From: a virus
Taxonomy: Duplodnaviria > Heunggongvirae > Uroviricota > Caudoviricetes
Direction: 5' to 3' (one strand)
IMG/VR virus record: IMGVR_UViG_2681813269_000007
DNA length: 22,505 nt
Shown here in pieces: positions 4,713 through 21,871 of the stretch. The first letter of the stretch is position 1, and every line of letters begins with the position of its first letter. The notes beneath the pieces are model-generated. The model worked only from the letters and a program-made list of their open reading frames with translations, did not search any database and was not told the DNA's origin. Made by a program: the position numbers and the translations under genes.

Positions 4713-6626
4713 ATGAGCAAAGTAAAAATCGGTGAATTAATAAACTCACTTGTTAGCGATGTTGAGTCAATAGATAACTCTGACCGTCCTCAAGGGGAGA
4801 AAACAAAAAAAATAAAGGCTGTTGCATTAAAATTTAAAAATGCATTATTTAATGACAAGCGAAAGTTTAGGGGGAAAGGATTAGAAAAAAGAATTACAGC
4901 CAACACATTCAATGCCTATATGAGCAGGGCCAGAAAACGGTTTGATGATAAACTTCATCATAGCTTTGAAAAAAATATACATCGCCTATCTGAAAAGTAT
5001 CCTTTATATAATGAGGAGCTATTGTCATGGCTTTCTCTACCTGCTGCCGATATTCGCCAGAGAATGTCAGCTTTACAGGCAAAATTAAAATTAATTCTCC
5101 CTCTATCAGAAGATTTATCTAATATCAGAATTGGCGATAACAAAAGTCATAATAAGTTATTGAAATTATCAAATAAATATAAAGAGTGGCAATTCGCCAT
5201 TTCTGATTTAACTAGCGATAACTGGAAAGATAAGCGCGATTATTTATATAAATTACTACAGCAAGGATCTGCCTTACTTGAGGAGTTGAATCAGCTAAAA
5301 GTTAACCATGAGATTCTCTATCATCTTCAACTAAGCCCTGCCGAACGTGCATCTATCCAGCAACGATGGGCGGACGTTCTGCACAATAAGAAACGTAACG
5401 TGGTGGTCATTGATTACCCTAAATATATGCAAGCTATTTACGATATTATAAATAGCCCTGCTACATTAAATAATCTAAACACTCGTTCAGGTATGGCTCC
5501 TTTGGCATTTGCACTTGCTGCATTGTCAGGAAGACGAATGATTGAGATTATGTATCAAGGTACATTTACTGTTTCTGGTAAGTATACCGTTGATTTTTTA
5601 GGCCAAGCTAAAAAAAGAACTTCTGATGATATAACCAGAAAAATATATACATTATGCGAAGCAAAAACATTTGTTTATTTAATAAATGTACTTCGCTCAT
5701 GCCCAGCAGCATCTGATTTTGATGATGTCGTTAAAGGTTATGGAGATAACGATACACGCTCTGAAAACGGACGTATTAATGCCATATTAGCAAAGGCTTT
5801 TAACCCGTGGGTTAAATCATTTTTCAAAGATGACCGCCGTGTTTATAAAGATAGTCGTGCTATTTATGCCCGTATTGCGTATGAAATGTTTTTCCGCGTA
5901 GATCCTCGTTGGAAAAACGTAGATGAAGATGTTTTCTTTATGGAAATTTTAGGCCATGACGATGAAAACACTCAATTACACTATAAGCAATTCAAGCTGG
6001 CCAACTTCTCAAAGACATGGAGGCCAAATACTGGAAACGAAAATACCAGGCTGGAAGCATTGCAGCAGCTTGATGACGAAATGCCTGGATTCGCCAGAGG
6101 AGATGCCGGGGTTCGTCTGCATAACACAGTTAAGCAGCTGGTAGAGCAGGACCCCTCTATAAAAATCACGAACAGCACTCTAAGAGCGTTCAAATTTAGC
6201 CCAACAATGATTAGTCGATACCTGGAATTTGCTGCTGATGCTCTGGGGCAATTTGTTGGCGAAAACGGACAATGGCAACTGAAAATAGATACTCCAGAAA
6301 TCGTTATGCCTGACGAAGAAGAACTGGAAGCAATACCTGAACTGGCGGATGAATTATCAGAGGATGACGATCTGGATGACGACGAAATTGAGATAGAGGA
6401 AGAGGAAGAGGAAGAGGAAGAGGAAGAGGAAGAGAGCGTAGAAGAACAGCAACCGCCTGCACCTTCTTCGCCTGTATCTAAGCCGGTATTTAAGCCGGTG
6501 AGAAATATTGGTGATGGCTCATACGTTGTTGAGTTTCATTATAATGGCCAGAATTATGCGTGGTCCGGCAGTGCAAACAGCCCCATGTCAGCAATGCAGT
6601 TAGCATGGCTGACATATTTCGGTTAA
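4713..6626 (+). CDS. telN: Protelomerase TelN (telomere resolvase, tyrosine-recombinase-like)
   Basis: 637-aa ORF with AGGAGAGG RBS. The N-terminus MSKVKIGELIN... and overall colinearity match N15 TelN (about 630 aa) as I recall it. An acidic C-terminal tract precedes the conserved tail. Confidence 0.92.
   Translation: MSKVKIGELINSLVSDVESIDNSDRPQGEKTKKIKAVALKFKNALFNDKRKFRGKGLEKRITANTFNAYMSRARKRFDDKLHHSFEKNIHRLSEKYPLYNEELLSWLSLPAADIRQRMSALQAKLKLILPLSEDLSNIRIGDNKSHNKLLKLSNKYKEWQFAISDLTSDNWKDKRDYLYKLLQQGSALLEELNQLKVNHEILYHLQLSPAERASIQQRWADVLHNKKRNVVVIDYPKYMQAIYDIINSPATLNNLNTRSGMAPLAFALAALSGRRMIEIMYQGTFTVSGKYTVDFLGQAKKRTSDDITRKIYTLCEAKTFVYLINVLRSCPAASDFDDVVKGYGDNDTRSENGRINAILAKAFNPWVKSFFKDDRRVYKDSRAIYARIAYEMFFRVDPRWKNVDEDVFFMEILGHDDENTQLHYKQFKLANFSKTWRPNTGNENTRLEALQQLDDEMPGFARGDAGVRLHNTVKQLVEQDPSIKITNSTLRAFKFSPTMISRYLEFAADALGQFVGENGQWQLKIDTPEIVMPDEEELEAIPELADELSEDDDLDDDEIEIEEEEEEEEEEEEESVEEQQPPAPSSPVSKPVFKPVRNIGDGSYVVEFHYNGQNYAWSGSANSPMSAMQLAWLTYFG
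6396..6431 (+). repeat. Perfect (GAGGAA)x6 in-frame hexanucleotide tandem repeat inside telN
   Basis: Six exact tandem GAGGAA units encode the poly-Glu run in the TelN C-terminal acidic linker. Confidence 0.9.
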
Positions 6627-6797: not shown

Positions 6798-7580
6798 CTA
6801 TTTATTGGTGATTTCTGCTGGCTTTAGCTGCGCGGATAACTGCTCAAGTTTTTGAACTGCCAGTTCAAAATGCGCGGGTAACGCCTTTTCCAGATCAGAG
6901 TTAATATCGGTGATGGGTAAATCACCACACGACATACTCCGCCTACCCCCACGAACAACATCACGCAACAACTCTCGTTCATACGTGCGCATGTTCCCCA
7001 ATGCCGACTCAGCAGCCGTCAAAATCCGGCGCAGTTCTGCCGTAATTGCTGGCAAATCATCAACCGTTATGGGGTTCGGGGATGGATTACGACACGCCCG
7101 ACGCAAAGCTAACCATACACCGCTAATCCAGGCATTTCGGTACTGAAAACTTTGTGCTATATCGTTAATCAGCCCTCGCAGATACTCTTTCTGCCTCCAG
7201 TTCAACGGCTCCGCTGCTCGCATTGGCTCAGGCTCGATGTAAACGTACTCTCCATTTTTGCGAATAGAGGGCAAGACTTCGTTCGTTACCCATTTGCGAA
7301 ACCGCCAAGCTGTTGTGCCTTGCTTCACCGCGTCACGGCAGCGGAGGATCAGGGTGTATAGACCTGACTCTGAAATAATATTTAGCTTTTGCTCTCCGCC
7401 AGGGGTGTAACTTAAAGTTACACCCTTTTCATCCTCATCCAGAGACATTAGCGCCTTCCGGGAATTAACGAGTCTTAAAGCATCACATACATCCTTAGCC
7501 ACAAACCACGGCTCACCGTTAATCATCACTACACGAACCTGATGCTCTTCCTGAAAGGAAAAGACTGCTAACGCGCTCAT
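6798..7580 (-). CDS. Phage antirepressor with Bro-N-like N-terminal domain
   Basis: 260-aa ORF. The N-terminus (FQEEHQVRVVMINGEPWFVAKDVCDALRL...) fits the Bro-N / KilA-N antirepressor fold. Start overlaps the stop of the upstream small ORF. Position matches the N15 anti-immunity locus. Confidence 0.7.
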   Translation of the reverse strand: MSALAVFSFQEEHQVRVVMINGEPWFVAKDVCDALRLVNSRKALMSLDEDEKGVTLSYTPGGEQKLNIISESGLYTLILRCRDAVKQGTTAWRFRKWVTNEVLPSIRKNGEYVYIEPEPMRAAEPLNWRQKEYLRGLINDIAQSFQYRNAWISGVWLALRRACRNPSPNPITVDDLPAITAELRRILTAAESALGNMRTYERELLRDVVRGGRRSMSCGDLPITDINSDLEKALPAHFELAVQKLEQLSAQLKPAEITNK

Positions 7581-7810
7581 TCAGCCTCCTTATCGCGCAG
7601 CAAGTGCGACGAGAGAGACGCAGAATATCCCTGTGCTTCATGCGTTAACTCACACGCAATCTGCAGAAGTTTTCCAGCCTCTGAGAGGTAAATCGACGCC
7701 TCACAACTGGAGACTGTCCGATGGGCTGATGATACGAGCGCATAGACCTGAGCCAGACGTTCATCCAACGATTCCAGCAGGCCAACAGTGTTCATTTTTA
7801 CCTGATTCAT
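7577..7810 (-). CDS. Small protein, first gene of the antirepressor operon (icd-like position)
   Basis: 77-aa ORF with GAGGTGG RBS 4-5 nt upstream, translationally coupled to the downstream antirepressor. The Icd-like assignment is by position only (P1-style c4-icd-ant order). Confidence 0.5.
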   Translation of the reverse strand: MNQVKMNTVGLLESLDERLAQVYALVSSAHRTVSSCEASIYLSEAGKLLQIACELTHEAQGYSASLSSHLLRDKEAE

Positions 7811-8137
7811 GCAGCCACCTCGCGCACCGGAATACGGGCAGACAATACCAGGACAAACCGGCTGGCGAACTGGCGACGAGCTTCCCGTTCAGATGACGCG
7901 ATAGTGGAAAGATGATGAATGTGGGACTTTTTGTCTGTGCGAACGACTGCCGCAAATTTGAATTTGAACATGGTATGCACTCCGTTTTATTGGTCGTGCT
8001 ACCTCCAGAGTTGCGAATCTCTTTATTGGTGGTAGCCCAGGCGGGGTTCGCAATACCGGTAAACGAAGAAACCGGCCCGACCGAAGTCAGCCCCACCTGA
8101 GCCACCATAATTCGGATATGCGCAGGTCTATACACAT

Positions 8138-8213
8138 AAAAAAACACGCTGGCGCGTGTTGTGCGCTTCGTTTTGCCAGGATTGCGAAGTCCCGACTGCG
8201 GGATTTACCGCAG
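8138..8213 (-). ncRNA. Candidate small regulatory RNA (c4/cA-like) upstream of the antirepressor operon
   Basis: On the minus strand: -35 TTGACG (8250-8245), -10 TAAAGT (8226-8221), then about 75 nt ending in an intrinsic terminator (ACACGC-GCCA-GCGTGT plus U7, 8159-8138). The predicted RNA has a 5' hairpin CUGCGG-UAAAUC-CCGCAG. No convincing ORF in the region. Confidence 0.3.
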
Positions 8214-10166: not shown

Positions 10167-13100
10167 TTACCCATAGAAAGCGCCCTGCTCTTCGTAGCTG
10201 CATGGGCTATTCCCGGTAATGTATTCACGTAACCGCCGCAGTTCATTGCTGGATAAGTGATCCATGAACTCTGTGAGGTACAGAGATGCAAACGTCATAG
10301 CTATGCTGGCTGATGACCATGATGACATAGTGGCCAGCTCCTCACCGGAAAGCGCACTCATCGCCCAGGACTCAGGTACAACCACTGGCAACACAGCCAA
10401 AGCCTCAGAAATTACTGAATGAGGGGCGTTTTGAACCTGCTCGTTTGTGGATCGCGTTTTATCATCCATATATATATTGAGATCCAAATCGCGATCCATT
10501 TCGATGGCGGTCTTCTCGGCTTTACGCGTTTTCAGGGTTAGGCCATCTTTCTGACGCTGAGCAAGAATATCCAGCATAAATGCCGCTGATTCAGGCTCAA
10601 CAAAACGCAAGGTTGGACGCTTATCGCCGTCTCTGCCGCGACGTTTACCTGTTTTAAGGCCAAGAGAGTCGCAAATGTTTTTAAACAACGCTTCCGGCAC
10701 TTTAGGCTTCCCTTTTGGCGTCATAAAACCACCAATGTGCAGAACGTTATTCAACAGGTCACGGCGTTCGGCTGTCATGAGGTTATCTCGAGCAAATTTG
10801 AGACGCTCCTGAGTCGCCTCGCCGGTCATAGTCTCAGGGTTGATACCGCAGTCGATAAAGTACTGCCGGAGAGTTGCTGATTTAAGCGCATAGAAACCGC
10901 GCGCCCCGACTTCAACAGTAGGAGTAGCTTTTACCTTGTGATCGATTATTCCAGGGAATTTAGTTTTAAAGACATCATCAGCCTGCTCGCGAGTCATCGC
11001 GGTCACTACAAAATATTGCCACTGTCCCGCCTGACGGTATGCGTAGGTAAAATTGATGGCTGCTTCTTCCCGGTCGTAACGACGAGCTGTTACCTCATCT
11101 AAAAGCATTGTTTCATAGCGGCGAACTTTGTCTCGAGCACCATCGAAATAGAATTTCAGCGTGCCTTCTTCAACCGGTAGTTTCAGTTCGTTTTCAATAT
11201 CCCAGCGGACAAGTTTTGCCTGTTCTTCAAGCGTCAGCGCGCGTTTTTTTAGCAGTTCTTCACGCTCTGATTCTTGTGGAGTTTCTGTATTGAGATGCAG
11301 ATCCAGTGTCTGTTCCCACACAATATCCCGCGCTTCTTTACGCAGCTCTTTACCGATATCATTCGCAGCATAATCGGTGGCCAGCGGCGATACCTTATAA
11401 CCGTCGCTGTGCATGATGCAGATCATGTTGCTGGCGTAGTCGTTACGCGCAGTCGCTTCAATAGCGGCTGCTTTAATTTTCATCCTGGTAAAGTCGGTAT
11501 TGGCCACCCCCATTGATATACGGTCGCCATCGAAAACGACATCCGTCAGTTCACCGTTCATACCTGCGGTAGCAAGCAATGCCTGGGCGAATGCTCGTTC
11601 TATTTTTTGCGGGTCAGTTTCACGTTTTGCACGAGCTTTATCAAAGCCGATAATAAATTCTTTTGCTGTACGGTCGCGGCGTAGCATTTGCACTGCGTCG
11701 CTGGGTACAACTTCACCACAGAACATGCCGAAATGACGGTCAAAATGTTTTTGCTCAATCGACACGCCGGATGAAATAGACGGGCTATAAATCAGGCCGT
11801 CGTATTTTTTGACCATCTTTTTCGGTTGATTGGTAAATGCTTCAACTTCTGGCTCTGGTTTGTTTTTCTGGTTTACACACAGAAATTTCTTACCAGGAAA
11901 ATGCATTCTCAGGGTGGCTGTCACATCTTCTGCAAAGGTGGAGCTGTCGGTGGCCAACATGATTTTTTCGCCATCCGATACAGCTTTCACCACCTCGGTC
12001 ATGATGCGATCTTTTTCTGTATAAAAAACCCGGATTGGCTCACCTGTTTCGCGGTTGCGAACATCAACAGGTAATTCAATTACGTGGATCTGCAGCCATG
12101 CCGGTAAACCTAGTTCTTCACGGCGTTTCATAGCCAGTTCAGCCAGGTCAACCAGCAGATCGTTCGCATCAGCATCCACCATGATTGGGTGTTGTTCCGT
12201 TCTGGCCAGCGCGTCAATTAGCGTATTGAATACAGCCACCGGGTTTTCCATAGCCCGACCGGAAAGAACGGCACGTAGCCCTTGTGTGGCCTCGTCAAAG
12301 CCAAAATAGTCGTGCTGGCGCATCAACGGTTGCCAGCAGTTTTTAACAATCGAGTTTATGCAGATGGTCAGTTTACTGGCGTATGGAGCCATTTCCTGAT
12401 AGCCAGGGTCCTGATAGTGCAGGATATCGGCTTTTACACCTTTTCCTTCTGTCATCATTTCCCACAGGCCACCAATAAGGGAGACACGGTGAGCAACAGA
12501 GATACCACGTTCTGAGCTATGCATTAATGGTCGTAACAATCCTGTAGATTTGCCGGAACCCATACCAGCACGGACGATGACTATCCCTTGTAGTGATTGC
12601 ACGTACTTCAGGACATCATCGGTCATTACCGAAGTTTCAAAACGCTTATAGGTGATATGTTGAGGGCGTTTATTGGGATCAGTTATGCGTTCGCTGAAAG
12701 AGCGCGGAGCCTGGGCAATACGGCACTTTTTATTCAGGCGACGGGCAATGTGGTCTTTTACCGTAGCGCGATAGATATTTTCCAGTCCCATTTCACGCAG
12801 AACGATGCAGAACATGTTAAATAAATCTGACGGACTGTTAGGAACCGGACAGGTTAGCATGCCTATATCCACCGCTCTCAGCAGCTCTTTGGCAAAAGTA
12901 CGACGGTTATCCCGCTTAATTGTCTTCAGGCGGTTGAGCGTCAGAGATAGCAAATCAGTACCGGTTTTCAGGCGGTTTGCTGTTGTAAATAGTTGACGTG
13001 CGGTTTCACGAAGTCCACGTAGTTTGTGCAGGTCGTTGAAGTCACTGCACTCCATTTGCGGATCGTCTTCAAAAGTTGGATAGACGCAGCGGACATCGTT

Positions 13101-14162
13101 GAATTTCGATAAGATTTCATAGCCAGTCCGCAGGCCGGTATTCCCTTTTCCTTCTGTGGCAGATTTCCGGTCATTATCCAGTGCGCAGGTGATTTTTGCC
13201 GCCGGGTACATGTTTACCAGTTGTTCCACAACATGAACCATGTTGTTAGCGGATACAGCGACAACCACAGCGTCAAAGCGTTTATATTTTTTCGTGGCAA
13301 GCCAGATGGATGCACCAGTAGCAAAACCTTCTGTAACAGCGATGTTTTGCGCCCCTTTCAGCTCACCGATAACAAAGCAGGCACCGACGAAATCGCCGCT
13401 GGTTACTGCGCTGGTCTGGTATTTCCCACCTTGTTTGTCGATTCGCTGCCAACCCACAATACGACCATCGTAACGACCGTCCAGGTGAGCCAGAGGGATA
13501 GCCATATATGTGGTTGGCCCCCGGCTCCATTTCGCACTGTCGTGACTGGTCACGCGACGCACATCACATGAACTAAAAACGTCACGAATACCTTTTTTAA
13601 TCGCATATGGCCATGAGCCGTCTTCAGCCGGAGCATGTTCCCACGCGCTGTGGAATGCCAGCCATCCCAGCAAACGTTCATGGTCCATTTGGTTGTTTTT
13701 CAGGTCATTAATTCGTTTTTGTTCTTCACGGCGACGACGTGCTTCGGCCTGACGTTCTATTCTTTCCCGTTCTTCTTCCGGTTGTGCGACCACGGTCGCA
13801 TTATTCCGTTGTTGCTCACGGCGATATTCAGAAAACAGGAAGGAGAAACCGCTCCATGAGCCAGCATCGCTGCCTTTATGGACGAAGTTAATGAACGGGT
13901 AATCAATCCCTTTGCTGTGTTCCAGCCGGGAGTAAATTTCTACGCGTCCTTTCAGGCTCTTTTCGAGAGCTTCTGGAGATGTTTTATTGTATGAAGAGTA
14001 ACGCTCAACTCCCCCGCGAGGGTTGAGTTGGATGTTGTCGGAACAGGCAGGCCAGTTGATACCAGCCATCTGTGCCAGCTCGGTTAGTTCATCCCGTGCT
14101 GCTTCAATTAGCGAGAACGGATCGCTGCCAAAGCGATCCGCATAGAAATCGTTTAATGTCAT
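10167..14162 (-). CDS. repA: Replication protein RepA (multidomain primase-helicase)
   Basis: 1331-aa ORF, close to the roughly 1324 aa I recall for N15 RepA. Walker A GMGSGKST in the central helicase region. Same orientation and position relative to cB as in N15. Confidence 0.92.
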   Translation of the reverse strand: MTLNDFYADRFGSDPFSLIEAARDELTELAQMAGINWPACSDNIQLNPRGGVERYSSYNKTSPEALEKSLKGRVEIYSRLEHSKGIDYPFINFVHKGSDAGSWSGFSFLFSEYRREQQRNNATVVAQPEEERERIERQAEARRRREEQKRINDLKNNQMDHERLLGWLAFHSAWEHAPAEDGSWPYAIKKGIRDVFSSCDVRRVTSHDSAKWSRGPTTYMAIPLAHLDGRYDGRIVGWQRIDKQGGKYQTSAVTSGDFVGACFVIGELKGAQNIAVTEGFATGASIWLATKKYKRFDAVVVAVSANNMVHVVEQLVNMYPAAKITCALDNDRKSATEGKGNTGLRTGYEILSKFNDVRCVYPTFEDDPQMECSDFNDLHKLRGLRETARQLFTTANRLKTGTDLLSLTLNRLKTIKRDNRRTFAKELLRAVDIGMLTCPVPNSPSDLFNMFCIVLREMGLENIYRATVKDHIARRLNKKCRIAQAPRSFSERITDPNKRPQHITYKRFETSVMTDDVLKYVQSLQGIVIVRAGMGSGKSTGLLRPLMHSSERGISVAHRVSLIGGLWEMMTEGKGVKADILHYQDPGYQEMAPYASKLTICINSIVKNCWQPLMRQHDYFGFDEATQGLRAVLSGRAMENPVAVFNTLIDALARTEQHPIMVDADANDLLVDLAELAMKRREELGLPAWLQIHVIELPVDVRNRETGEPIRVFYTEKDRIMTEVVKAVSDGEKIMLATDSSTFAEDVTATLRMHFPGKKFLCVNQKNKPEPEVEAFTNQPKKMVKKYDGLIYSPSISSGVSIEQKHFDRHFGMFCGEVVPSDAVQMLRRDRTAKEFIIGFDKARAKRETDPQKIERAFAQALLATAGMNGELTDVVFDGDRISMGVANTDFTRMKIKAAAIEATARNDYASNMICIMHSDGYKVSPLATDYAANDIGKELRKEARDIVWEQTLDLHLNTETPQESEREELLKKRALTLEEQAKLVRWDIENELKLPVEEGTLKFYFDGARDKVRRYETMLLDEVTARRYDREEAAINFTYAYRQAGQWQYFVVTAMTREQADDVFKTKFPGIIDHKVKATPTVEVGARGFYALKSATLRQYFIDCGINPETMTGEATQERLKFARDNLMTAERRDLLNNVLHIGGFMTPKGKPKVPEALFKNICDSLGLKTGKRRGRDGDKRPTLRFVEPESAAFMLDILAQRQKDGLTLKTRKAEKTAIEMDRDLDLNIYMDDKTRSTNEQVQNAPHSVISEALAVLPVVVPESWAMSALSGEELATMSSWSSASIAMTFASLYLTEFMDHLSSNELRRLREYITGNSPCSYEEQGAFYG
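13783..13802. other. sopC-like centromere palindrome, copy 1 (inside repA coding sequence)
   Basis: TGTGCGACC-AC-GGTCGCATT. Positions 13785-13800 (TGCGACC-AC-GGTCGCA) are a perfect 7+2+7 inverted repeat with the same GACC-AC-GGTC core as the F sopC SopB-binding site. Confidence 0.6.
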
Positions 14163-14407: not shown

Positions 14408-15004
14408 TCATCTACCCTCAACCATGAATGATTTGATCGTTCCGACTATTTGGTGAACAAATTCAAGATCGCTTTTCCTGAAGATGGCTCGTTGTGAGTT
14501 TGTTCCATCCAGATAGTAATTTTCATCATCAAAACGGGCCAGGCGCTGGATAGTGATATTTCCTGCAGTATCACGAACCAGAACATCCTCGCCGGGGACC
14601 AGTTCCAGCGCAGAATCGACCAGGAGAAAATCGCCTGGCTGATAGTTTCCCTGCGTAAGATTGCTGATAGTTAACGCATACACAGTATTGCGCTGGCTGA
14701 TGAATGGCAGGAATCGCTCAGTATTTGGAACCTGTCCCGGCTTCCATTCTTCATCAGGCCCACTTTCAGTTGTGCCAATAATAGGAATGCGATCAGGGTC
14801 ATATTCTGTCCCATATAGCACCCAATGCACTGGCTTGCGTAAGCACTTAGCCAGGGCAATACCTATCTCCAGTGACGGCATTACGTCGCCACGTTCTAAG
14901 TTTTGGACGCCTGCTATAGAGATATCGACAGCCTCAGCAACTTCTCGCAACGTCAGCTTCATCTCTAAACGGCGTGCTTTCAGTCGTTCGCCTCGTGTTT
15001 TCAT
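14408..15004 (-). CDS. cB: Prophage repressor CB (CI-like, N-terminal HTH, C-terminal S24-like domain)
   Basis: 198-aa ORF with an XRE-type HTH (LTLREVAEAVDISIAGVQNLERG) and a LexA/CI-like C-terminal fold (GDFLLVD ... ITIQRL). Divergent from cro across an operator region. Confidence 0.85.
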   Translation of the reverse strand: MKTRGERLKARRLEMKLTLREVAEAVDISIAGVQNLERGDVMPSLEIGIALAKCLRKPVHWVLYGTEYDPDRIPIIGTTESGPDEEWKPGQVPNTERFLPFISQRNTVYALTISNLTQGNYQPGDFLLVDSALELVPGEDVLVRDTAGNITIQRLARFDDENYYLDGTNSQRAIFRKSDLEFVHQIVGTIKSFMVEGR

Positions 15005-15068: not shown

Positions 15069-15095
15069 TTGTTATTTATTGTTTATAATAACAAC

Positions 15096-15317
15096 ATGAA
15101 ACCAGAAGAACTTATTCGCCACTTTGGCAGTGTTGAAAAAGCAGCGGCAGGGGTAGGTGTAACACCCGGAGCTGTTTACCAATGGTTAACCGCTGGAGAG
15201 ATTCCTTCATTGCGGCAAAGCGATATTGAAGTTCGTACTGCTTACAAGCTGAAGAGTGACTTTACAACTCGGCGGGTAAAGCAGTCGATTAAGGAGAGTC
15301 GTAAGCGTGGAGCTTGA
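15096..15317 (+). CDS. cro: Cro-like repressor
   Basis: 73 aa from ATG 15096 (MKPEELIRHFGSVEKAAAGVGVTPGAVYQWL..., an HTH). The ORF track extends to a TTG at 15069 that lies inside the operator, so the shorter start is preferred. Confidence 0.7.
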   Translation: MKPEELIRHFGSVEKAAAGVGVTPGAVYQWLTAGEIPSLRQSDIEVRTAYKLKSDFTTRRVKQSIKESRKRGA

Positions 15318-16017
15318 GTATATACGCAGCTGCGTCTCTACGGCATTGGCTGATGTTCATTATCGCCAGCGTGGCATTCTGGAGGTCCAGCTTGAGCAGA
15401 TGCGTCTCGGTAGATCAGGACGGTTTAACAATAAACCAGTCCGGTCAATCAGTGTGGGGGATGATAACTCATACGAAGTGTCCGTTCCCGCTGAGCCGGT
15501 TAGATTCCACCAAGGGAAAACATTTAAACAATCATCAATATTGCTCACTGATATTGATTTTCAGAGCGCCAGCTGGCGCAGGGCTATTGGTCAGTTGAAT
15601 AACGAGGAATCAGCCTGGCTTTATTATTGCTACGGATGCAAGCCTGACTACAACAATGATGTGATTGTTTGTCAGTGGTTATGGCTTGATTTTCTGGTTG
15701 CTCATTCTGGGGGCGGCTTTAAAAAAATGAAGGCCTCCACGAAAAAAGCCATGCGGAAATTGATTTATTACGCGGCACAGCAGGTTAAATCAGAACTTAC
15801 GTGTGCTGAGGCAGTTGATGAGAGAGAACAGGACAGGCATCTGAGTTTTCTACTGAATATATCTATTGATAGCTGGAGACAAGATTATAAAGAACGCTGG
15901 CTTTTAATTAAGTCGCGATGTCTGAGCTTAAATCGAACCGCATTATTAAATGCGGCGGAGAAGCGCAGTGAAATCATCAAACGCCATCGGGCAGGAAGTG
16001 CCATTCTGCCTTTGTAA
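15307..16017 (+). CDS. Hypothetical protein in the position of a Q-like late antiterminator
   Basis: 236-aa ORF with GTG start and AAGGAG RBS, overlapping the cro 3' end. Function inferred from gene order only. Confidence 0.35.
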   Translation: MELEYIRSCVSTALADVHYRQRGILEVQLEQMRLGRSGRFNNKPVRSISVGDDNSYEVSVPAEPVRFHQGKTFKQSSILLTDIDFQSASWRRAIGQLNNEESAWLYYCYGCKPDYNNDVIVCQWLWLDFLVAHSGGGFKKMKASTKKAMRKLIYYAAQQVKSELTCAEAVDEREQDRHLSFLLNISIDSWRQDYKERWLLIKSRCLSLNRTALLNAAEKRSEIIKRHRAGSAILPL

Positions 16018-16022
16018 ACAAG

Positions 16023-16270
16023 TTATGTTCAGGAAACCGTCGAAGCCAGAATTAAGGTATTCGGGGGTAAGAAATGAATATGTTATCTGGTGTCCAACTT
16101 GTGGTTACAGGACACGACCAGATAGTAATAAGCAGTCTGTAATTGCCGATTGGTATTTATCAAATCAGCCAGGTAATAAGCATATAGAAAATCTTTGGAT
16201 TAAGCGTTACTTGGAAATCAGCGAGGGTGCGACCACGGTCGCACAAGAAAATGAAAATAACGCCATTTAA
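16023..16270 (+). CDS. Small zinc-ribbon protein (possible Lar-type restriction-alleviation protein)
   Basis: 82 aa from ATG 16023 with a CPTCG motif in YVIWCPTCGYRTRPD. No clear RBS; the start is uncertain and the ORF track offers an alternative at 15950. Confidence 0.35.
16227..16244. other. sopC-like centromere palindrome, copy 2
   Basis: GTGCGACC-AC-GGTCGCAC, a perfect 8+2+8 inverted repeat at the junction of two small ORFs. Confidence 0.6.
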
Positions 16271-16454
16271 GCAGGGGCCGATGACGCATGATGAAGCAGA
16301 GCGTCTTTCAGATACTTATCGGCGGCGTGGTAAGAAAGTTCTGGTTGTTCGTTCTGATTTTTTAGGTGATGGATATTGCGTTTATGTTCATTTACCTGAA
16401 TCAGAAAGAACGCCAAAACCATCCAGAACATATCAACAGAAAATTTGGGTATAG
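16251..16454 (+). CDS. Hypothetical small protein (start uncertain)
   Basis: ORF open from 16227; the first ATG is at 16251. No strong RBS. Kept for continuity of the early-gene block. Confidence 0.3.
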   Translation: MKITPFKQGPMTHDEAERLSDTYRRRGKKVLVVRSDFLGDGYCVYVHLPESERTPKPSRTYQQKIWV

Positions 16455-16477
16455 ATAAACGTTGAGGAGAATTATTC

Positions 16478-17077
16478 GTGACTAATCAGATTATTTACGA
16501 CAGGAAACGGTCTGATGTAATGATTGACCTTGAAACAATGGGTACTAACACATGTGCTCCAATTGTTTCTATCGGGGCAGTGTTTTTTTCTCCAGAAAGT
16601 GAGGAATTAGGTCCTACTTTTTATGTGCCAGTGAATCTCAGAAGCTCGATGTTGAATGGTGGTGTCGCCGATGGTGATACCATTTTATGGTGGTTGAAAC
16701 AGAGCAAGGAAGCCAGAGCCGCAATTTGTACTAATGATGCCCTTGATATTAAGGATGCACTTTTTGAATTATCACACTTTATTACTTGCCATGCATGTAA
16801 TTTAAAAAAATTGAAAGTATGGGGAAATGGAGCAACATTCGACAATGTAATTTTACGCGGTGCTTATGAGCGCGTTGGCTTAGCCTGTCCGTGGGAATAT
16901 TTTAATGATCAGGATGTTCGAACAATCGTTAATCTTGGTCAGTTTATTGGTTTCAATTCTAAAAAAGATATGCCATTTGATGGCGAACGACACAATGCCC
17001 TAGCTGATGCTATTCATCAGGCTAAGTATGTATCCGCAATTTTCTCCCGTCTCATAAAAGGGAAAGGAGAATCGTAA
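16478..17077 (+). CDS. DEDDh-family 3'-5' exonuclease (DnaQ / RNase T-like)
   Basis: 199-aa ORF with GTG start and GAGGAGA RBS. Exo motifs MIDLET (D-x-E), WGNGATFD, and HNALADA (H-x4-D). Confidence 0.8.
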   Translation: MTNQIIYDRKRSDVMIDLETMGTNTCAPIVSIGAVFFSPESEELGPTFYVPVNLRSSMLNGGVADGDTILWWLKQSKEARAAICTNDALDIKDALFELSHFITCHACNLKKLKVWGNGATFDNVILRGAYERVGLACPWEYFNDQDVRTIVNLGQFIGFNSKKDMPFDGERHNALADAIHQAKYVSAIFSRLIKGKGES

Positions 17078-17496
17078 TGGCAAAAGTTTTTACACCAGAA
17101 CAGCGTGAAGAACTGAAGAAACAAATTGTGGAACTCGTGCGTCTGAATGGGCGAGGAACGGTTAGGCAACTGGCAGATGAAATTAGTATTAGCCGATGTG
17201 CTGTTAATCGTTTATCCAGAGAGCTTGCCACCAGTGGTGATTTGTATATCTCTGGCTCCGGGATATTTCTGTCTGCACAAGCGCGCAAGGACTGGCAAAA
17301 CGCCCGCAAAAAGCTATCAAGAGTAAAGTCGAAGAAATCGGTAGTTGTTGATCCTGACCTTATCTGGTCATTACCTGATGGAGAAATACGTCGTTACGAC
17401 AGGCGCTTGAACATGATTTGTCACGATTGTCGGAAGAGCGAAGTTATGCAGCGTGTGTTGGCGTTTTATCAGGGAAATTTTCAGGAGGTGGCGTAG
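17077..17496 (+). CDS. Hypothetical protein with probable winged-HTH segment
   Basis: 139-aa ORF with GGAGA RBS; ATG overlaps the exonuclease stop. VRQLADEISISRCAVNRLSRELA is HTH-like. Confidence 0.6.
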   Translation: MAKVFTPEQREELKKQIVELVRLNGRGTVRQLADEISISRCAVNRLSRELATSGDLYISGSGIFLSAQARKDWQNARKKLSRVKSKKSVVVDPDLIWSLPDGEIRRYDRRLNMICHDCRKSEVMQRVLAFYQGNFQEVA

Positions 17497-17786
17497 TGAA
17501 TATCGACACCACGATAACGATCGATACGGCCCTAAATACCGGTCTGGCACTTCTCGGTTGGTTTTACATCATGTTCAGTTCGTGGAAGTGGGCGGCCTCT
17601 GTTTTTCTAAAGCAGTGGGGAAAGCGCCGCAAACAGGAAAAACGCCAGAAAGCGTTGGAGGCGTTCTATGACGCATTTGAACTTAGCCGCATTGAGCCAG
17701 GCACAACAGCCAAGATAGCGACAAAAGGCGACCTGATGATAGTGATGTTCCGACAGGAGAGAGCAGAGAAAGGTGAATCAGCATGA
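17497..17786 (+). CDS. Small membrane protein (GTG start)
   Basis: AGGAGG 7 nt upstream of GTG 17497. One hydrophobic helix (ALNTGLALLGWFYIMFSSW). The ORF track's longer form would overlap the upstream gene by about 80 nt. Confidence 0.4.
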
Positions 17787-18457
17787 AATTTTCTAAATTT
17801 TCTGAGTTGGTGAATCGTATTTTGTTGAATCGTATTTTGTCCAACAACCACAGGCATCGTCGCGATATGGATGTAACAATCGTTGTTCATTCGCCTGGCA
17901 GCATTGGTTCAACACCTTCAGTTGAGGTTCAGTCAATTCACGCTGGTTTTGATTGGGATTCCGGGAAAGTGCTTATTTTCCCAGCACAGCCACTGACCAC
18001 GCTAACACCAGAACAGATTACTGATATTACTGATAGTGTGCGCAAAGGTCAGTCTTGGCACGCATATCAGGAATATAAAAAGCATAAAGAGCAGTTGGAA
18101 AAATTGTCGATTGAGTTGGAATCAGCCAAAAATCATATAGCAGAACTGGAAGCCAAACCTGTAAGCCAAACTTACAAGTTAACTTTTGAGCAATGGCTGG
18201 AACAGCAGCATGACAAAATTGATGTTGATTGTGGATGTGTAAGTACAGAAATGCTTATGCACTGGATAAGGGTCGCGTATGAGGCTGGCAACTCTCCGGT
18301 AACTCCGGATGGTCATATTCAGTTTTCTGTTTCACTTCCTGCAGCATGTGGTGGAGATAAATATTTTATTGATGGTGTATTTCAACCTTTGAGATATGAG
18401 CGTGACTGTGAAAAAGCGGTTGTGGCCGCTGGCGGTGTAGTTAATTGGGTTAAGTAA
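17783..18457 (+). CDS. Hypothetical protein
   Basis: 224-aa ORF, ATG overlapping the upstream stop, with a GGTGA RBS. No recognisable motif. Confidence 0.6.
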   Translation: MKFSKFSELVNRILLNRILSNNHRHRRDMDVTIVVHSPGSIGSTPSVEVQSIHAGFDWDSGKVLIFPAQPLTTLTPEQITDITDSVRKGQSWHAYQEYKKHKEQLEKLSIELESAKNHIAELEAKPVSQTYKLTFEQWLEQQHDKIDVDCGCVSTEMLMHWIRVAYEAGNSPVTPDGHIQFSVSLPAACGGDKYFIDGVFQPLRYERDCEKAVVAAGGVVNWVK

Positions 18458-18472
18458 TTTTCAGGAGGATTT

Positions 18473-18799
18473 ATGGCGCTGACAGCTGCAGAACGGCAAA
18501 GGAGACGCAGGGAACGGTTGAAGAAGGAAGGCACATCAAGACGGGACTGGATTCTGGAACCTGACGAGCTACGTATGTTGGGGGAAATTTGTGTATTGCG
18601 TAGACCGGGACGAGTTCCATATTCAGAGAATGAAGTCATCGGTCTGCTGATCAGGAAAAACTATAAGGAGCTGCAGAAGCAGCTATCTACTACTTGCTCG
18701 CGATGTGGTCAGAAAATGCCTGTTTCAGAATGTATTTTTGATGGTGAAGGCTCATGTCACCTTACAACTACGAGGCTGAAACTTGTGCTCAAAGTGTGA
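18473..18799 (+). CDS. Hypothetical basic protein with Cys cluster
   Basis: 108-aa ORF with AGGAGG RBS. Arg-rich N-terminus (ERQRRRRERLKKEG) and a CSRCG...C...C motif. Confidence 0.6.
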   Translation: MALTAAERQRRRRERLKKEGTSRRDWILEPDELRMLGEICVLRRPGRVPYSENEVIGLLIRKNYKELQKQLSTTCSRCGQKMPVSECIFDGEGSCHLTTTRLKLVLKV

Positions 18800-18998
18800 C
18801 TGGTCACGGAATGATAAATAAACAAAAAGGCATAGTTTTTGAAATGATGAGAAAACGAAGCGAAAAGAGTTTTTCTTATGGTGATGATGGGCTTCTGTAG
18901 GTGGTTGAGTGAGGCGTAGGAAGAGAACATAAGTATCGGACTACAAAGCTATTAACCCTGTTAATCCATTGAAAGTTGGCTATAAAATTTGAGTTTTA

Positions 18999-19018
18999 CC
19001 CTGTAATTTTATACAGTA
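18999..19018. promoter_or_regulatory. LexA (SOS) box
   Basis: CCCTGTAATTTTATACAGTA is a canonical CTGT-N8-ACAG with AT-rich spacer, 23 bp upstream of the ATG at 19041. It is the only such match I found in the window. Confidence 0.6.
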
Positions 19019-19040
19019 TCAAATAACCTTTTTTAATTAA

Positions 19041-19259
19041 ATGGTATTAGATTCAATGACTGAAGCATCTGTATCAACTCTTGAAGAACTCGGATCAAAC
19101 CTAAAAGACATCGACGCCGTTTTGGATCTGGTTAGCGTTGCTCTGGCTTCTCCCGAAGCTAGCTTGCATCTTGGCGAGATTTCACGGCTTGTTAGTATGT
19201 CGCGGGAGATTGCTCAGAATTGCCAACAAGCGATTGCTGTGGAGTGTTTACATCATTGA
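19041..19259 (+). CDS. Small acidic protein under the LexA box (candidate SOS-inducible antirepressor)
   Basis: 72-aa ORF, acidic and predicted helical, immediately downstream of the LexA box and convergent with the toxin-antitoxin pair. Confidence 0.55.
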   Translation: MVLDSMTEASVSTLEELGSNLKDIDAVLDLVSVALASPEASLHLGEISRLVSMSREIAQNCQQAIAVECLHH

Positions 19260-19302
19260 TACACACCCCGCCCTTCTGGACGGGGTAGTGAAAAGTGATT
19301 AA

Positions 19303-19590
19303 TCAATAGACGGCATTAATATTAATTGTTGCGCCACATGCTTGGGCATATTTTGATAAAGTTTTCATGCTTGCCCCTAAAGGATTGCTTTCCAGGCGGC
19401 TGATGGCGGACGGGCGCAATCCCATTCGTTCTGCCAGAGCTGACTTCGTTAAACCTGCTCTTTCCCTCATTTCGTATAACATTTCGACCATCTCCAGTTC
19501 TTTATCGGCCTCTTCATATCCTTTGATAGCTTCTGGAGTGTTGAGTAGTTTTTCCTTTACTTCGTTAAACGGGATGCCTTTTGCTTTCAT
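19303..19590 (-). CDS. HTH (XRE-family) antitoxin, HigA-like
   Basis: 95-aa ORF with HTH LTKSALAERMGLRPSAISRLES. Start codon overlaps the toxin stop (ATGA). Confidence 0.8.
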   Translation of the reverse strand: MKAKGIPFNEVKEKLLNTPEAIKGYEEADKELEMVEMLYEMRERAGLTKSALAERMGLRPSAISRLESNPLGASMKTLSKYAQACGATININAVY

Positions 19591-19901
19591 CAGTTCATCT
19601 CCTTCAGGCGAGTTCTGGCGATTTCTATAGCCTTTACTGGTGTTTTCTGTGTCTTTTTTACAAATGCATGCAATAGATAAATTTCGTTACCAGTCGCGTA
19701 GGCGTATAGCGTTCTTGCGATGTTTTTATCCCCTACTCTTAGTTCAAAGAGTCCTCCGCCTATTACACGGCTATGGGGCATCTTAAGTTTGTTTCCCTCT
19801 TTCTCCAGTCGTTCAATTAGCCTGGTCATGCGACCTCGCAGATCGTCTGGTAGTTCAAGCAGTTCATCCAGTGCTGCAGGGTGGGTTATCACGTTAAACA
19901 T
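19590..19901 (-). CDS. RelE/ParE-superfamily toxin (HigB / Gp49-like)
   Basis: 103 aa from ATG 19901, chosen over the ORF-track start at 19946 because AGGAGG lies 8 nt upstream. C-terminal ...LYAYATGNEIYLLHAFVKKTQKTP... matches the Gp49/HigB-type fold as I know it. Toxin-first order. Confidence 0.75.
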   Translation of the reverse strand: MFNVITHPAALDELLELPDDLRGRMTRLIERLEKEGNKLKMPHSRVIGGGLFELRVGDKNIARTLYAYATGNEIYLLHAFVKKTQKTPVKAIEIARTRLKEMN

Positions 19902-19959
19902 ATTATAGCCTCCTAATGCGCAAAATACACCAAAACGAGAAAACAAAGCAAATATAAAA

Positions 19960-19977
19960 TTTCACTAAAAAGTGAAA
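19960..19977. promoter_or_regulatory. Inverted repeat in the toxin-antitoxin promoter region (candidate operator)
   Basis: TTTCACT-aaaa-AGTGAAA lies 60-75 bp upstream of the toxin start within an AT-rich region. Confidence 0.4.
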
Positions 19978-20046
19978 ATAACACTGGATGTGTTCTTTTG
20001 GCAGAGTTACAGTTCGTGTTGTTGAGGGGGATAACCCACTAACTAT

Positions 20047-20286
20047 ATGAATTTTGAGGATATTATGAATTATCAAGGTAACGAAAAAATGCGCGGCGAC
20101 GTTGCGGAGATAGCTAACGAATTGTATGAGTTGTGGCAGAAGGTTGAACGTTTCGAAAAGGAATATGGTTTCAACAGTACCAACCTGACAGACCGACTGG
20201 CTGGCCGCTTAATTGGGACTATGGGGCCAAAACTGGCTGAGTTGAACCGCTTTATGGCTGATGTTGATTTCCAGTTTCAAGATTGA
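20047..20286 (+). CDS. Hypothetical small protein
   Basis: 79-aa ORF. An alternative ATG at 20065 is preceded by GAGGA. Confidence 0.5.
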   Translation: MNFEDIMNYQGNEKMRGDVAEIANELYELWQKVERFEKEYGFNSTNLTDRLAGRLIGTMGPKLAELNRFMADVDFQFQD

Positions 20287-20299
20287 TTAGAGAGGCGTT

Positions 20300-20527
20300 A
20301 TGAATATTAATGAAATTCGTGGAAATATGACTGAAGCGGCCCTGAGTGTGGAATGTGTTATGCGTGGATACCCACGCATTTCCCTGAAAGAGTTAAGCGA
20401 AGCCTGTTTTTTGAGTCAAGCTGCCGTTGAATTTATCATCGAACAGATGATCTGTTTTGGGGTTGCAAAGCGTAGCGGATCTGGTCGATATTCTTTGACC
20501 GATGAATATAAGCAGGCAACTTTCTAA
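20300..20527 (+). CDS. Hypothetical small protein (possible DNA-binding)
   Basis: 75-aa ORF with AGAGAGG RBS. Confidence 0.6.
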   Translation: MNINEIRGNMTEAALSVECVMRGYPRISLKELSEACFLSQAAVEFIIEQMICFGVAKRSGSGRYSLTDEYKQATF

Positions 20528-20530
20528 AAG

Positions 20531-20552
20531 CTGTGCGACCACGGTCGCACAG
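20531..20552. other. sopC-like centromere palindrome, copy 3 (longest perfect copy)
   Basis: CTGTGCGACC-AC-GGTCGCACAG, a perfect 10+2+10 inverted repeat starting 4 nt after the stop of the preceding gene. Confidence 0.65.
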
Positions 20553-20635
20553 CACAAAAACGAAAAAGCTTGGCAAAATGACGGTTTTTAGTTATTGTTT
20601 TGTTAAGTTGGGTTTTTTGTACCCAACAGCCAACA

Positions 20636-20659
20636 AGCCGCCTTTATGGCGGTTTTTTT
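20636..20659 (+). terminator. Intrinsic terminator downstream of the small-gene block
   Basis: GCCGCC-tttat-GGCGG followed by T7. Confidence 0.5.
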
Positions 20660-20794
20660 GTGCCTGAAAAGTGGGCGCAGGACAAGTTGCAGCTTGTCCT
20701 GCGGTCAACCCATGCCAGAGCTATAGGCTGAACCTAAAGCCCACCCGCGATGCGCATCGCCGGGTTAGCTTACCCAGGCAAAAAAATAATAGCT

Positions 20795-21871
20795 ATGTTC
20801 AAAACCACTAATATTCATGGCGCACAACTCGTTTGCGCAGATTCTCTGCAATTTATCAAAACCATCCCTGATAACTCGGTCAATTTGATTGCAACAGACC
20901 CACCATACTTCGGCGTAAAGGCTAACGCATGGGATAACCAGTGGGATAGCGATGCTGACTTTTTGGGGTGGATTGACGAATTTTTGGCAGAATTTTGGCG
21001 GATATTGGCCCCTAATGGCAGCCTGTATATGTTTACCGGCTCTCGCCTTGCGTCAAAAATTGAATTATTAACTCGCGACCGTTTCAATGTTCTGAACCAT
21101 ATCATTTGGGCTAAACCCAGTGGTATGTGGCGCGGTTGTCATAAAGAAAGTTTAAGGGCTTATTTTCCTGCTACTGAAAGAATATTATTTGCAGAGCATT
21201 ACGGCGCGTCAGGTTATGCTAAAGGTCAGTCAGGTTATGCTTCAAAATGTGCAGATTTAAGAAAAAATATTTTTTCTCCACTAATTGATGCTTTTTCGCT
21301 GGCTCGCCGTCAGTTAGATATATCAGCCGCAGACATTAATTCAGCGACAGGAAAGCAGATGTGTTCACACTGGTTTTCTTATTCGCAGTGGCGGCTTCCA
21401 TCATTAATTGATTTTAATAAACTATGCGAATTATTTCGCAGGAAGGCAGATTCACTCGGTGTCCCGTGTCCATATCCTTTTAATGTTGATTATTCAGAAC
21501 ATGAAAAGCGTTATAGCGATCTGAAATTGCATTATGAGGAAGTAAAGAAGCAGTATGATGATTTGAAGGCTCAGTATGAAAATTTACGCCGTCCATTTCA
21601 TGTTACTGCTGATGTACCTTATACCGATGTATGGGAGTTTCCTCCTGTGCAATATTATCCTGGCAAGCACCCATGTGAAAAACCTGCAGCGATGATGGAA
21701 CATATTATAAAGAGTAGTTCACGCCCCGGAGATATCGTTGCCGATTTCTTTATGGGATCAGGCTCAACTATTAAAGCTGCGCTGAAGTTAGGACGTCAGG
21801 CAATAGGTATTGAGATTGAGGGCGAACGTTATCTTCAGACAGTTGATGAAGTGAAAAAGTTATTTGAGTAA
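20795..21871 (+). CDS. DNA methyltransferase (amino-MTase, DPPY motif before FxGxG motif)
   Basis: ORF open from 20750; ATG 20795 is preferred because the 20750 ATG sits inside a palindrome. IATDPPY near the N-terminus and FFMGSGST near the C-terminus. No adjacent endonuclease is visible. Confidence 0.8.
   Translation: MFKTTNIHGAQLVCADSLQFIKTIPDNSVNLIATDPPYFGVKANAWDNQWDSDADFLGWIDEFLAEFWRILAPNGSLYMFTGSRLASKIELLTRDRFNVLNHIIWAKPSGMWRGCHKESLRAYFPATERILFAEHYGASGYAKGQSGYASKCADLRKNIFSPLIDAFSLARRQLDISAADINSATGKQMCSHWFSYSQWRLPSLIDFNKLCELFRRKADSLGVPCPYPFNVDYSEHEKRYSDLKLHYEEVKKQYDDLKAQYENLRRPFHVTADVPYTDVWEFPPVQYYPGKHPCEKPAAMMEHIIKSSSRPGDIVADFFMGSGSTIKAALKLGRQAIGIEIEGERYLQTVDEVKKLFE

Follow-up and report, generated by a model that had tools for sequence, protein, structure and literature searches.

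In phage N15, the product of antC is said, going back to work by Mardanov and Ravin in 2007, to be a LexA-controlled antirepressor of the prophage repressor CB. The anti-immunity operon is reportedly controlled by a small processed RNA, to go by the title of a 1999 report by Ravin and colleagues. Three papers describe N15 AntC in the same way, as a LexA-controlled antirepressor (PMC3121763; PMC4488713; PMC11652158). The N15 repressor is non-proteolytic (PMC10432266), and neither a RecA cleavage site nor the Ser/Lys dyad is present in CB of N15 and phiKO2 (PMC4997575). Induction by a LexA-controlled AntC directed at a non-cleavable CB is the route already published for N15-type phage-plasmids. 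In addition, the phiKO2 record describes Gp28 as 'similar to antirepressor encoded by Bacteriophage N15 AntA', and for the adjoining genes it notes similarity to icd and to AntB, the auxiliary antirepressor. Here we compare these systems with a locus in a 22,505-nt stretch of viral DNA (the window), in which a small open reading frame (ORF) is very probably antC, the gene of a LexA-controlled antirepressor of CB.

The window can be typed as an N15-like linear phage-plasmid (Table 1) from its telN, repA, cB, cro and Q, which have the same arrangement as those of N15, and gene order across it agrees with the N15 map. The nearest records are Escherichia phages PhiR46_1 and YDC107_1, with 93% nucleotide identity over positions 17000 to 21000. 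The locus was matched in 16 of 5,426 complete E. coli genomes, each time on a plasmid, and an identical 500-bp stretch was found on 46-kb plasmids in two complete E. coli genomes.

Table 1. Features of the window and of the antC region (positions are those of the window)
Feature	Position	Strand	Remarks
sopAB-like partition genes			present in the window
Protelomerase gene (telN)	4713-6626		637 aa
icd-antA-antB (immA) operon	8147-6798	minus	
antB ortholog	6798-7580	minus	260 aa; Bro-N protein; auxiliary antirepressor
antA ortholog (N15 gene 31)	7577-7810	minus	77 aa; 63% to N15 gp31
icd-like gene	7761-8147	minus	Pfam Phage_ASH match
repA	10167-14162	minus	1331 aa
cB	14408-15004	minus	prophage repressor; presumed AntC target
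cro and Q	15069-16017		
Early rightward operon, methylase gene, holin gene			present in the window
ORF upstream of antC	18473-18799		phrog_536 (gene 46/47 neighbourhood)
-35-like hexamer TTGAGT, putative antC promoter	18989-18994	plus	conserved TTTG
LexA operator (predicted SOS box)	18999-19018		20-mer CCCTGTAATTTTATACAGTA; core CTGTAATTTTATACAG, CTGT-N8-ACAG, at 19001-19016
-10-like hexamer TACAGT	19012-19017	plus	putative; inside right half of LexA box
GGTA, possible weak Shine-Dalgarno sequence	19043-19046	plus	9 nt before conserved ATG
antC ortholog	19056-19259	plus	stop codon included; 67 aa, acidic, helical-hairpin model
Stable hairpin after stop codon	19262-19290	plus	-17.5 kcal/mol, z -2.98
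HTH_3 antitoxin-like protein gene	19303-19590	minus	95 aa
Gp49 family (PF05973)/DUF891 RelE-like toxin gene	19590-19946	minus	

The core CTGTAATTTTATACAG is the sole exact CTGT-N8-ACAG match in the 22.5-kb window. The bare 8-base pattern is weak in itself, with 0.24 matches expected and at least one match in 20 of 100 shuffles. On a LexA position weight matrix built from 19 E. coli operators, which themselves score 12.7 to 24.9 bits, the 20-mer reached 19.2 bits and the runner-up site in the window 10.6. When the window was simulated 300 times with a first-order Markov model, the maximum was 16.9 bits, so that 19.16 was never attained. Its heterology-index-like score, about 5.3, falls inside the range of the sites from which that score was built. 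It is, by these measures, the only strong candidate LexA operator in the window. In a family scan, all 36 distinct homologous loci had the operator in the same register; they come from phage-plasmids of E. coli, Klebsiella, Enterobacter and Pseudocitrobacter and from IMG/VR contigs. CTGT and TT.TATACAGTA are invariant across the alignment of these sequences, and CTGT-N8-ACAG with ...TATACAGTA is present in every one of the 30 distinct pairings of a protein with its upstream sequence; the left half-site of phiKO2 is ATGT. The box lies 54 to 58 nt before the conserved ATG (63 nt where the script picked a later Met), and a more distant relative (L070) also keeps it. Mean column identity in the 36-sequence alignment is 0.83 over 18989-19020 versus 0.72 immediately upstream. 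The LexA box that the first-pass annotation had reported upstream of a small acidic ORF is therefore well supported by its uniqueness, its score and its conservation, and we infer that LexA binds the 20-mer.

The same annotation had placed the box over the likely promoter, and the conserved layout of the region argues for this too. TTTG at 18988-18991 is invariant in the 36 sequences, TACAGT is invariant in all homologs at 17 nt from the conserved TTG, and the arrangement TTG(A/C)(G/C)N-N17-TACAGT is common to N15, phiKO2, PhiR46_1, MStein, KpLi5 and NAR688. This conservation suggests that the LexA box spans the spacer and the -10 element of a putative promoter, TTGAGT-N17-TACAGT, which together with the box stands 40 nt upstream of the acidic ORF. 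An alternative -10 element is TATCAA at 19017-19022 (TATAAT in phiKO2). A simple promoter and terminator scan of 18800-19400 listed nothing, and the putative hexamers would have been missed because they fit the consensus at 8 of 12 positions only. The 5' leader (19020-19075) showed no structure above chance (z +0.6).

The ORF had originally been read as 72 aa from an ATG at 19041 (19041-19259; pI 4.4; 11 D+E against 3 K+R). Its existence and its acidic character are borne out, but its start is not: phiKO2 and KpLi5 have CTG or GGG in place of this first ATG, in PhiR46_1 an in-frame TGA comes after it, and it was dropped in favour of the ATG at 19056, which is invariant across homologs. On this comparison the product is most likely a protein of 67 aa (7.1 kDa, pI 4.5). 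No canonical Shine-Dalgarno sequence was found for the ORF. The segment AA.GGTA at 19040-19046, which overlaps the ATG at 19041, is invariant or nearly so, and reads GGTAGG in phiKO2 and KpLi5. Beyond the stop codon, the hairpin listed in Table 1 carries no U tract, was absent from the list of an intrinsic-terminator scan, and lies between the convergent antC and antitoxin genes; it is conserved in PhiR46_1, and its counterpart in N15 is a longer hairpin. The stable 3' hairpin and the convergent genes that follow on the opposite strand (19303-19946) point to a monocistronic antC, as had been proposed at first. These two downstream genes form a pair of the tad-ata toxin-antitoxin type, as do gp48 and gp49 of N15. 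The toxin ORF is probably over-extended by the listed TTG start at 19946. On the other side of the antC promoter, the homolog of N15 gene 47 (18754-18975) encodes 48 aa versus 80 aa in PhiR46_1 and 73 aa for N15 gp47; relative to both it has lost 87 nt and then runs into in-frame stop codons, and is therefore probably a pseudogene.

With the 72-aa translation as query, tblastn aligned residues 1-68 with N15 39604-39807 (55.9% identity, E 5e-17). The N15 ORF (39604 or 39619 to 39831) lies between genes 47 and 48, and neither of the two N15 records (one of them NC_001901, our L014) has a CDS or a regulatory feature for the ORF or its box (39562-39831). In the window the ORF lies downstream of the homologs of genes 46 and 47 and is convergent with the tad-ata pair (gp48/gp49), a position on which the N15 and phiKO2 maps agree, and the LexA box stands in the same register before both ORFs. 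By alignment and position, the window ORF is the evident syntenic ortholog of the unannotated N15 ORF. There are three exact CTGT-N8-ACAG matches in N15. One, at 39562-39581, precedes the unannotated ORF and scores 21.1 bits; another, TACTGTATAAAAAAACAGTT at 21658-21677, scores 22.7 bits and precedes the umuD-like gene 26 by about 30 nt; the third, with a spacer rich in G+C, falls within the tape-measure gene and is outside the eight best-scoring sites. All other N15 sites score at most 10.9 bits. With strong LexA boxes before gene 26 and before the antC ORF, N15 seems to have two SOS-controlled genes, and a directly LexA-controlled N15 antC would have to be the ORF at 39.6 kb, because the only other strong box precedes gene 26. 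A literature search returned no coordinates or size for N15 antC. The N15 map in Ravin's reviews reportedly places antC between genes 47 and 48, and by elimination and from this map the published antC is most probably the ORF between those two genes. Since the N15 records contain no CDS at 39562-39831, the published gene appears to be missing from the N15 annotation. The first-pass annotation had taken the window ORF as perhaps distinct from the known N15 antirepressor, since it is small and unlike the Bro-N protein; that contrast falls away, since the Bro-N protein is the ortholog of AntB, part of a separate circuit, and it is AntC that this small ORF resembles. Because the LexA-controlled AntC of N15 is most probably orthologous to the window ORF, the route described here is a known one and not new.

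The presumed target of AntC is similarly conserved. Over 198 aa, CB of the window shares 77% of its residues with the N15 repressor (E 6e-121), and it is 99% identical to CB of PhiR46_1. It has an HTH_3 domain, and its C-terminal half matches Peptidase_S24 below threshold (21.3 bits versus a cut-off of 23.3). In our alignment to the LexA and UmuD motifs, CB has TIQRL where those proteins carry the catalytic lysine (TVK(156)RL or TVKKL), and Ser-Gly where they have the Ala/Cys-Gly cleavage site. Taken with the published descriptions of the N15 and phiKO2 repressors (PMC10432266; PMC4997575), these features agree with the earlier view that the repressor appears non-cleavable. Across 32 distinct loci, divergence of AntC follows that of CB (Spearman 0.90) no better than that of Q (0.91), so that the co-variation reflects phylogeny only. 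That AntC contacts CB is what we infer. AntC is the fastest-evolving of four proteins compared: identity to the window copy is 51-57% in other lineages, versus 76-78% for CB. Two AntC alleles, one 97-100% and the other about 78% identical to the protein of the window, are found alongside 99%-identical CB, in L001, L031 and L037 versus the window and L021-L029.

The antC ORF bears the marks of a coding sequence. Variability by codon position 1/2/3 is 0.22/0.15/0.36 in the 36-sequence alignment, an order (3 > 1 > 2) that fits a protein-coding sequence under purifying selection, and none of the 30 distinct protein variants has a broken frame. Twenty-one alignment columns are invariant across the family. 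AlphaFold2 predicts a hairpin of two helices (3-30 and 39-66; pLDDT 87.5), for which a Foldseek search of the PDB returned generic helical hairpins only (best E 0.6). AntC matches phrog_6301 (E 3.3e-35, profile positions 1-70 of 71) and phrog_10889, labelled 'anti-repressor' (E 2.2e-6). Neither AntC nor AntA matches a Pfam family (E <= 0.01) or an NCBIfam model; the same searches gave no Bro-N or Ant/KilA-C domain in AntC, and Pfam no DinI-like domain.

The family appears narrow, since HMMER over 1.84 billion representatives gave 8 matches, made up of N15-type small proteins and two long repetitive proteins. Homologs were collected by tblastn and by scans of IMG/VR and species-representative genomes, which added about 50 loci; the genome-contig scan gave only 2 loci. 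Those found by tblastn are in PhiR46_1 and YDC107_1 (both 76%), N15 (56%), Enterobacter phage MStein-2023a, eight Klebsiella N15-like phages and phiKO2 (Gp47). In the searches made, the family is confined to N15-like phage-plasmids with a CB-type repressor. A Klebsiella-type AntC locus (51% to that of the window) was also met on a 52-kb contig labelled Limoniibacter endophyticus (L019, NZ_BMZO01000013.1). This contig has the size of an N15-like phage genome and sits in the assembly of an unrelated-looking genus; it could be contamination or point to an unexpected host. A metagenomic N15-like phage (L071 4431-5213; also L072) carries a distant AntC-like gene, P0054, of 70 aa (phrog_6301, E 1e-12). 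No LexA box was found at this gene, and the one match with a single mismatch in the whole 10-kb locus lies elsewhere. Opposite the gene, across a 250-bp spacer that by eye seems to hold inverted repeats, lies a divergent ORF of 106 aa, for which neither Pfam nor PHROG gave a match. In this phage the antirepressor may have been rewired to a dedicated regulator.

Evidence for antirepressor function also comes from AntA. The AntA of the window matches the same two PHROGs over its full length (phrog_6301, E 1.5e-36; phrog_10889, E 1.3e-18), and N15 AntA and the N15 AntC ORF likewise match both. Pairwise BLASTP of AntA against AntC found no match; hhalign aligned them over 53 gapless columns with a probability of 92.8% (E 4e-7). 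The two share the turn motif S-x-E-A-S-(L/I)-x-L-x-E, and the AntA model is a helical hairpin too. On profile evidence, therefore, the window ORF can be classed as a remote paralog of AntA, and the other branch of its family is an antirepressor that has been defined by genetics in this type of phage, which supports antirepressor function independently of the assignment to antC. The scan of the window with the LexA matrix gave no box near antA. It is conceivable, though we hold it to be doubtful, that a single CB-binding module, a helical hairpin, exists in AntC and AntA as two copies that have diverged, the one receiving LexA/SOS input and the other the antisense-RNA input of immA. The box would then have been lost in distant phages (L071/L072), where the gene faces a divergent gene, and the module would serve as an exchangeable sensor of induction like the TF-smORF modules discussed below. 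If this is true and undescribed, it would add a modest new point on how telomere phages diversify their induction signals.

Overall, the working model is as follows. In the lysogen, host LexA bound at 18999-19018 would keep antC off, since its operator extends over both the spacer and the -10 element of that gene's promoter. DNA damage would activate RecA and lead to self-cleavage of LexA, upon which a monocistronic antC mRNA would be made. The resulting 7-kDa acidic helical hairpin would bind the non-cleavable CB and remove it from its operators, and the ensuing derepression of cro, Q and repA would start lytic growth. The first proposal for this ORF, an SOS-inducible small antirepressor, is in our estimate highly likely to be right, given the N15 orthology, the conserved box, the paralogy with AntA and the phrog_10889 match.

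Three other explanations were weighed. The ORF could encode a small acidic protein that is induced by SOS but acts on something other than CB, either a modulator of LexA or RecA (compare DinI and GIL01 gp7) or an inhibitor of cell division. Such proteins are, like this one, small, acidic, helical and LexA-controlled, and the AntC sequence does not track CB specifically, being matched in this by Q. However, homology to AntA, annotated as an antirepressor in N15, and the match to an 'anti-repressor' PHROG tie the ORF to repressor inactivation; no Pfam model, DinI included, matches it, and the family keeps to N15-like phage-plasmids with a CB-type repressor. Taking these points together, we consider a target other than CB improbable.

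A second possibility is that the LexA box is a relic and that antC is transcribed mainly by read-through from the early rightward operon (cro-Q-...-gene 46). The genes at 15069-18900 all lie on the same strand, no terminator was detected before the box, and the promoter hexamers are weak. A relic would sit badly with a box and a TTG-N17-TACAGT layout that have stayed invariant while their flanks diverged, and the N15 literature puts antC in the SOS regulon (PMC4488713; PMC3121763; PMC11652158). We rate read-through as the main source of antC expression marginally lower still. It is hardly credible that the ORF is untranslated and the region holds a LexA-controlled small RNA or nothing functional: although a canonical ribosome-binding site is missing and the N15 record has no ORF annotated here, the codon-position pattern, the frame kept intact in every variant, the phrog_6301 match and the confident fold prediction all speak for a protein. 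The preferred reading therefore remains a translated, LexA-controlled antirepressor of CB.

The value of these results lies in the annotation of antC; biologically they add little. More than 1000 contigs, from E. coli, Shigella and others, encode exactly the protein of the window, and it is called 'hypothetical' or 'uncharacterised' in all named entries examined. The matches on E. coli plasmids (16 plasmids, 5,426 genomes) are all 'hypothetical protein' among the matches listed, and the phiKO2 homolog is listed only as Gp47. Protein-database names for the N15, phiKO2 and window proteins were likewise only 'hypothetical', 'uncharacterised' or 'Gp47'. Where antC and its SOS box are recognised, induction of the phage-plasmid by DNA-damaging antibiotics can be predicted, and the paralogy of AntA and AntC offers a single repressor-binding fold for structural study.

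Among described systems, N15 AntC is the closest in genome type, gene position and register of the LexA box, in a protein 56% identical, and in a non-cleavable, 77% identical CB. The window protein differs from it in a diverged sequence (about 21 residues are invariant family-wide) and in its C-terminal tail, and the locus differs in that the neighbouring gp47 homolog is truncated. AntA (N15 gene 31; phiKO2 Gp28) resembles AntC in its PHROGs, hairpin model and turn motif, and presumably has the same target, CB; unlike antC, antA belongs to the icd-antA-antB operon between telN and repA and has no LexA box nearby. With the Bro-N/Ant antirepressors (P22 Ant type; N15 AntB) AntC shares the name only, being unrelated to them in fold and in size (260 aa, Bro-N). 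Tum of coliphage 186 and GfoA/GftA of the Salmonella Gifsy prophages offer a functional parallel, since they too combine a non-cleavable repressor with a small LexA-controlled antirepressor gene outside the immunity region (PMC3121763). No sequence relationship to them was detected, either with Pfam or in the family search, which stayed within N15-like elements, and Tum is a 146-aa protein with a DinI-like half (PMC3121763). The TF-smORF modules of linear plasmid-like vibriophages, described in 2023 by Silpe and colleagues (PMC10432266), resemble antC in that a small ORF inactivates a cI-type repressor non-proteolytically in phage-plasmids with telN and repA, and the distant AntC-like gene of L071, which has no LexA box and faces a divergent ORF, invites the same comparison. 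Those modules, however, are SOS-independent, are activated by the adjacent TF and occur with cleavable repressors (PMC10432266), whereas antC combines predicted LexA control with a non-cleavable CB.
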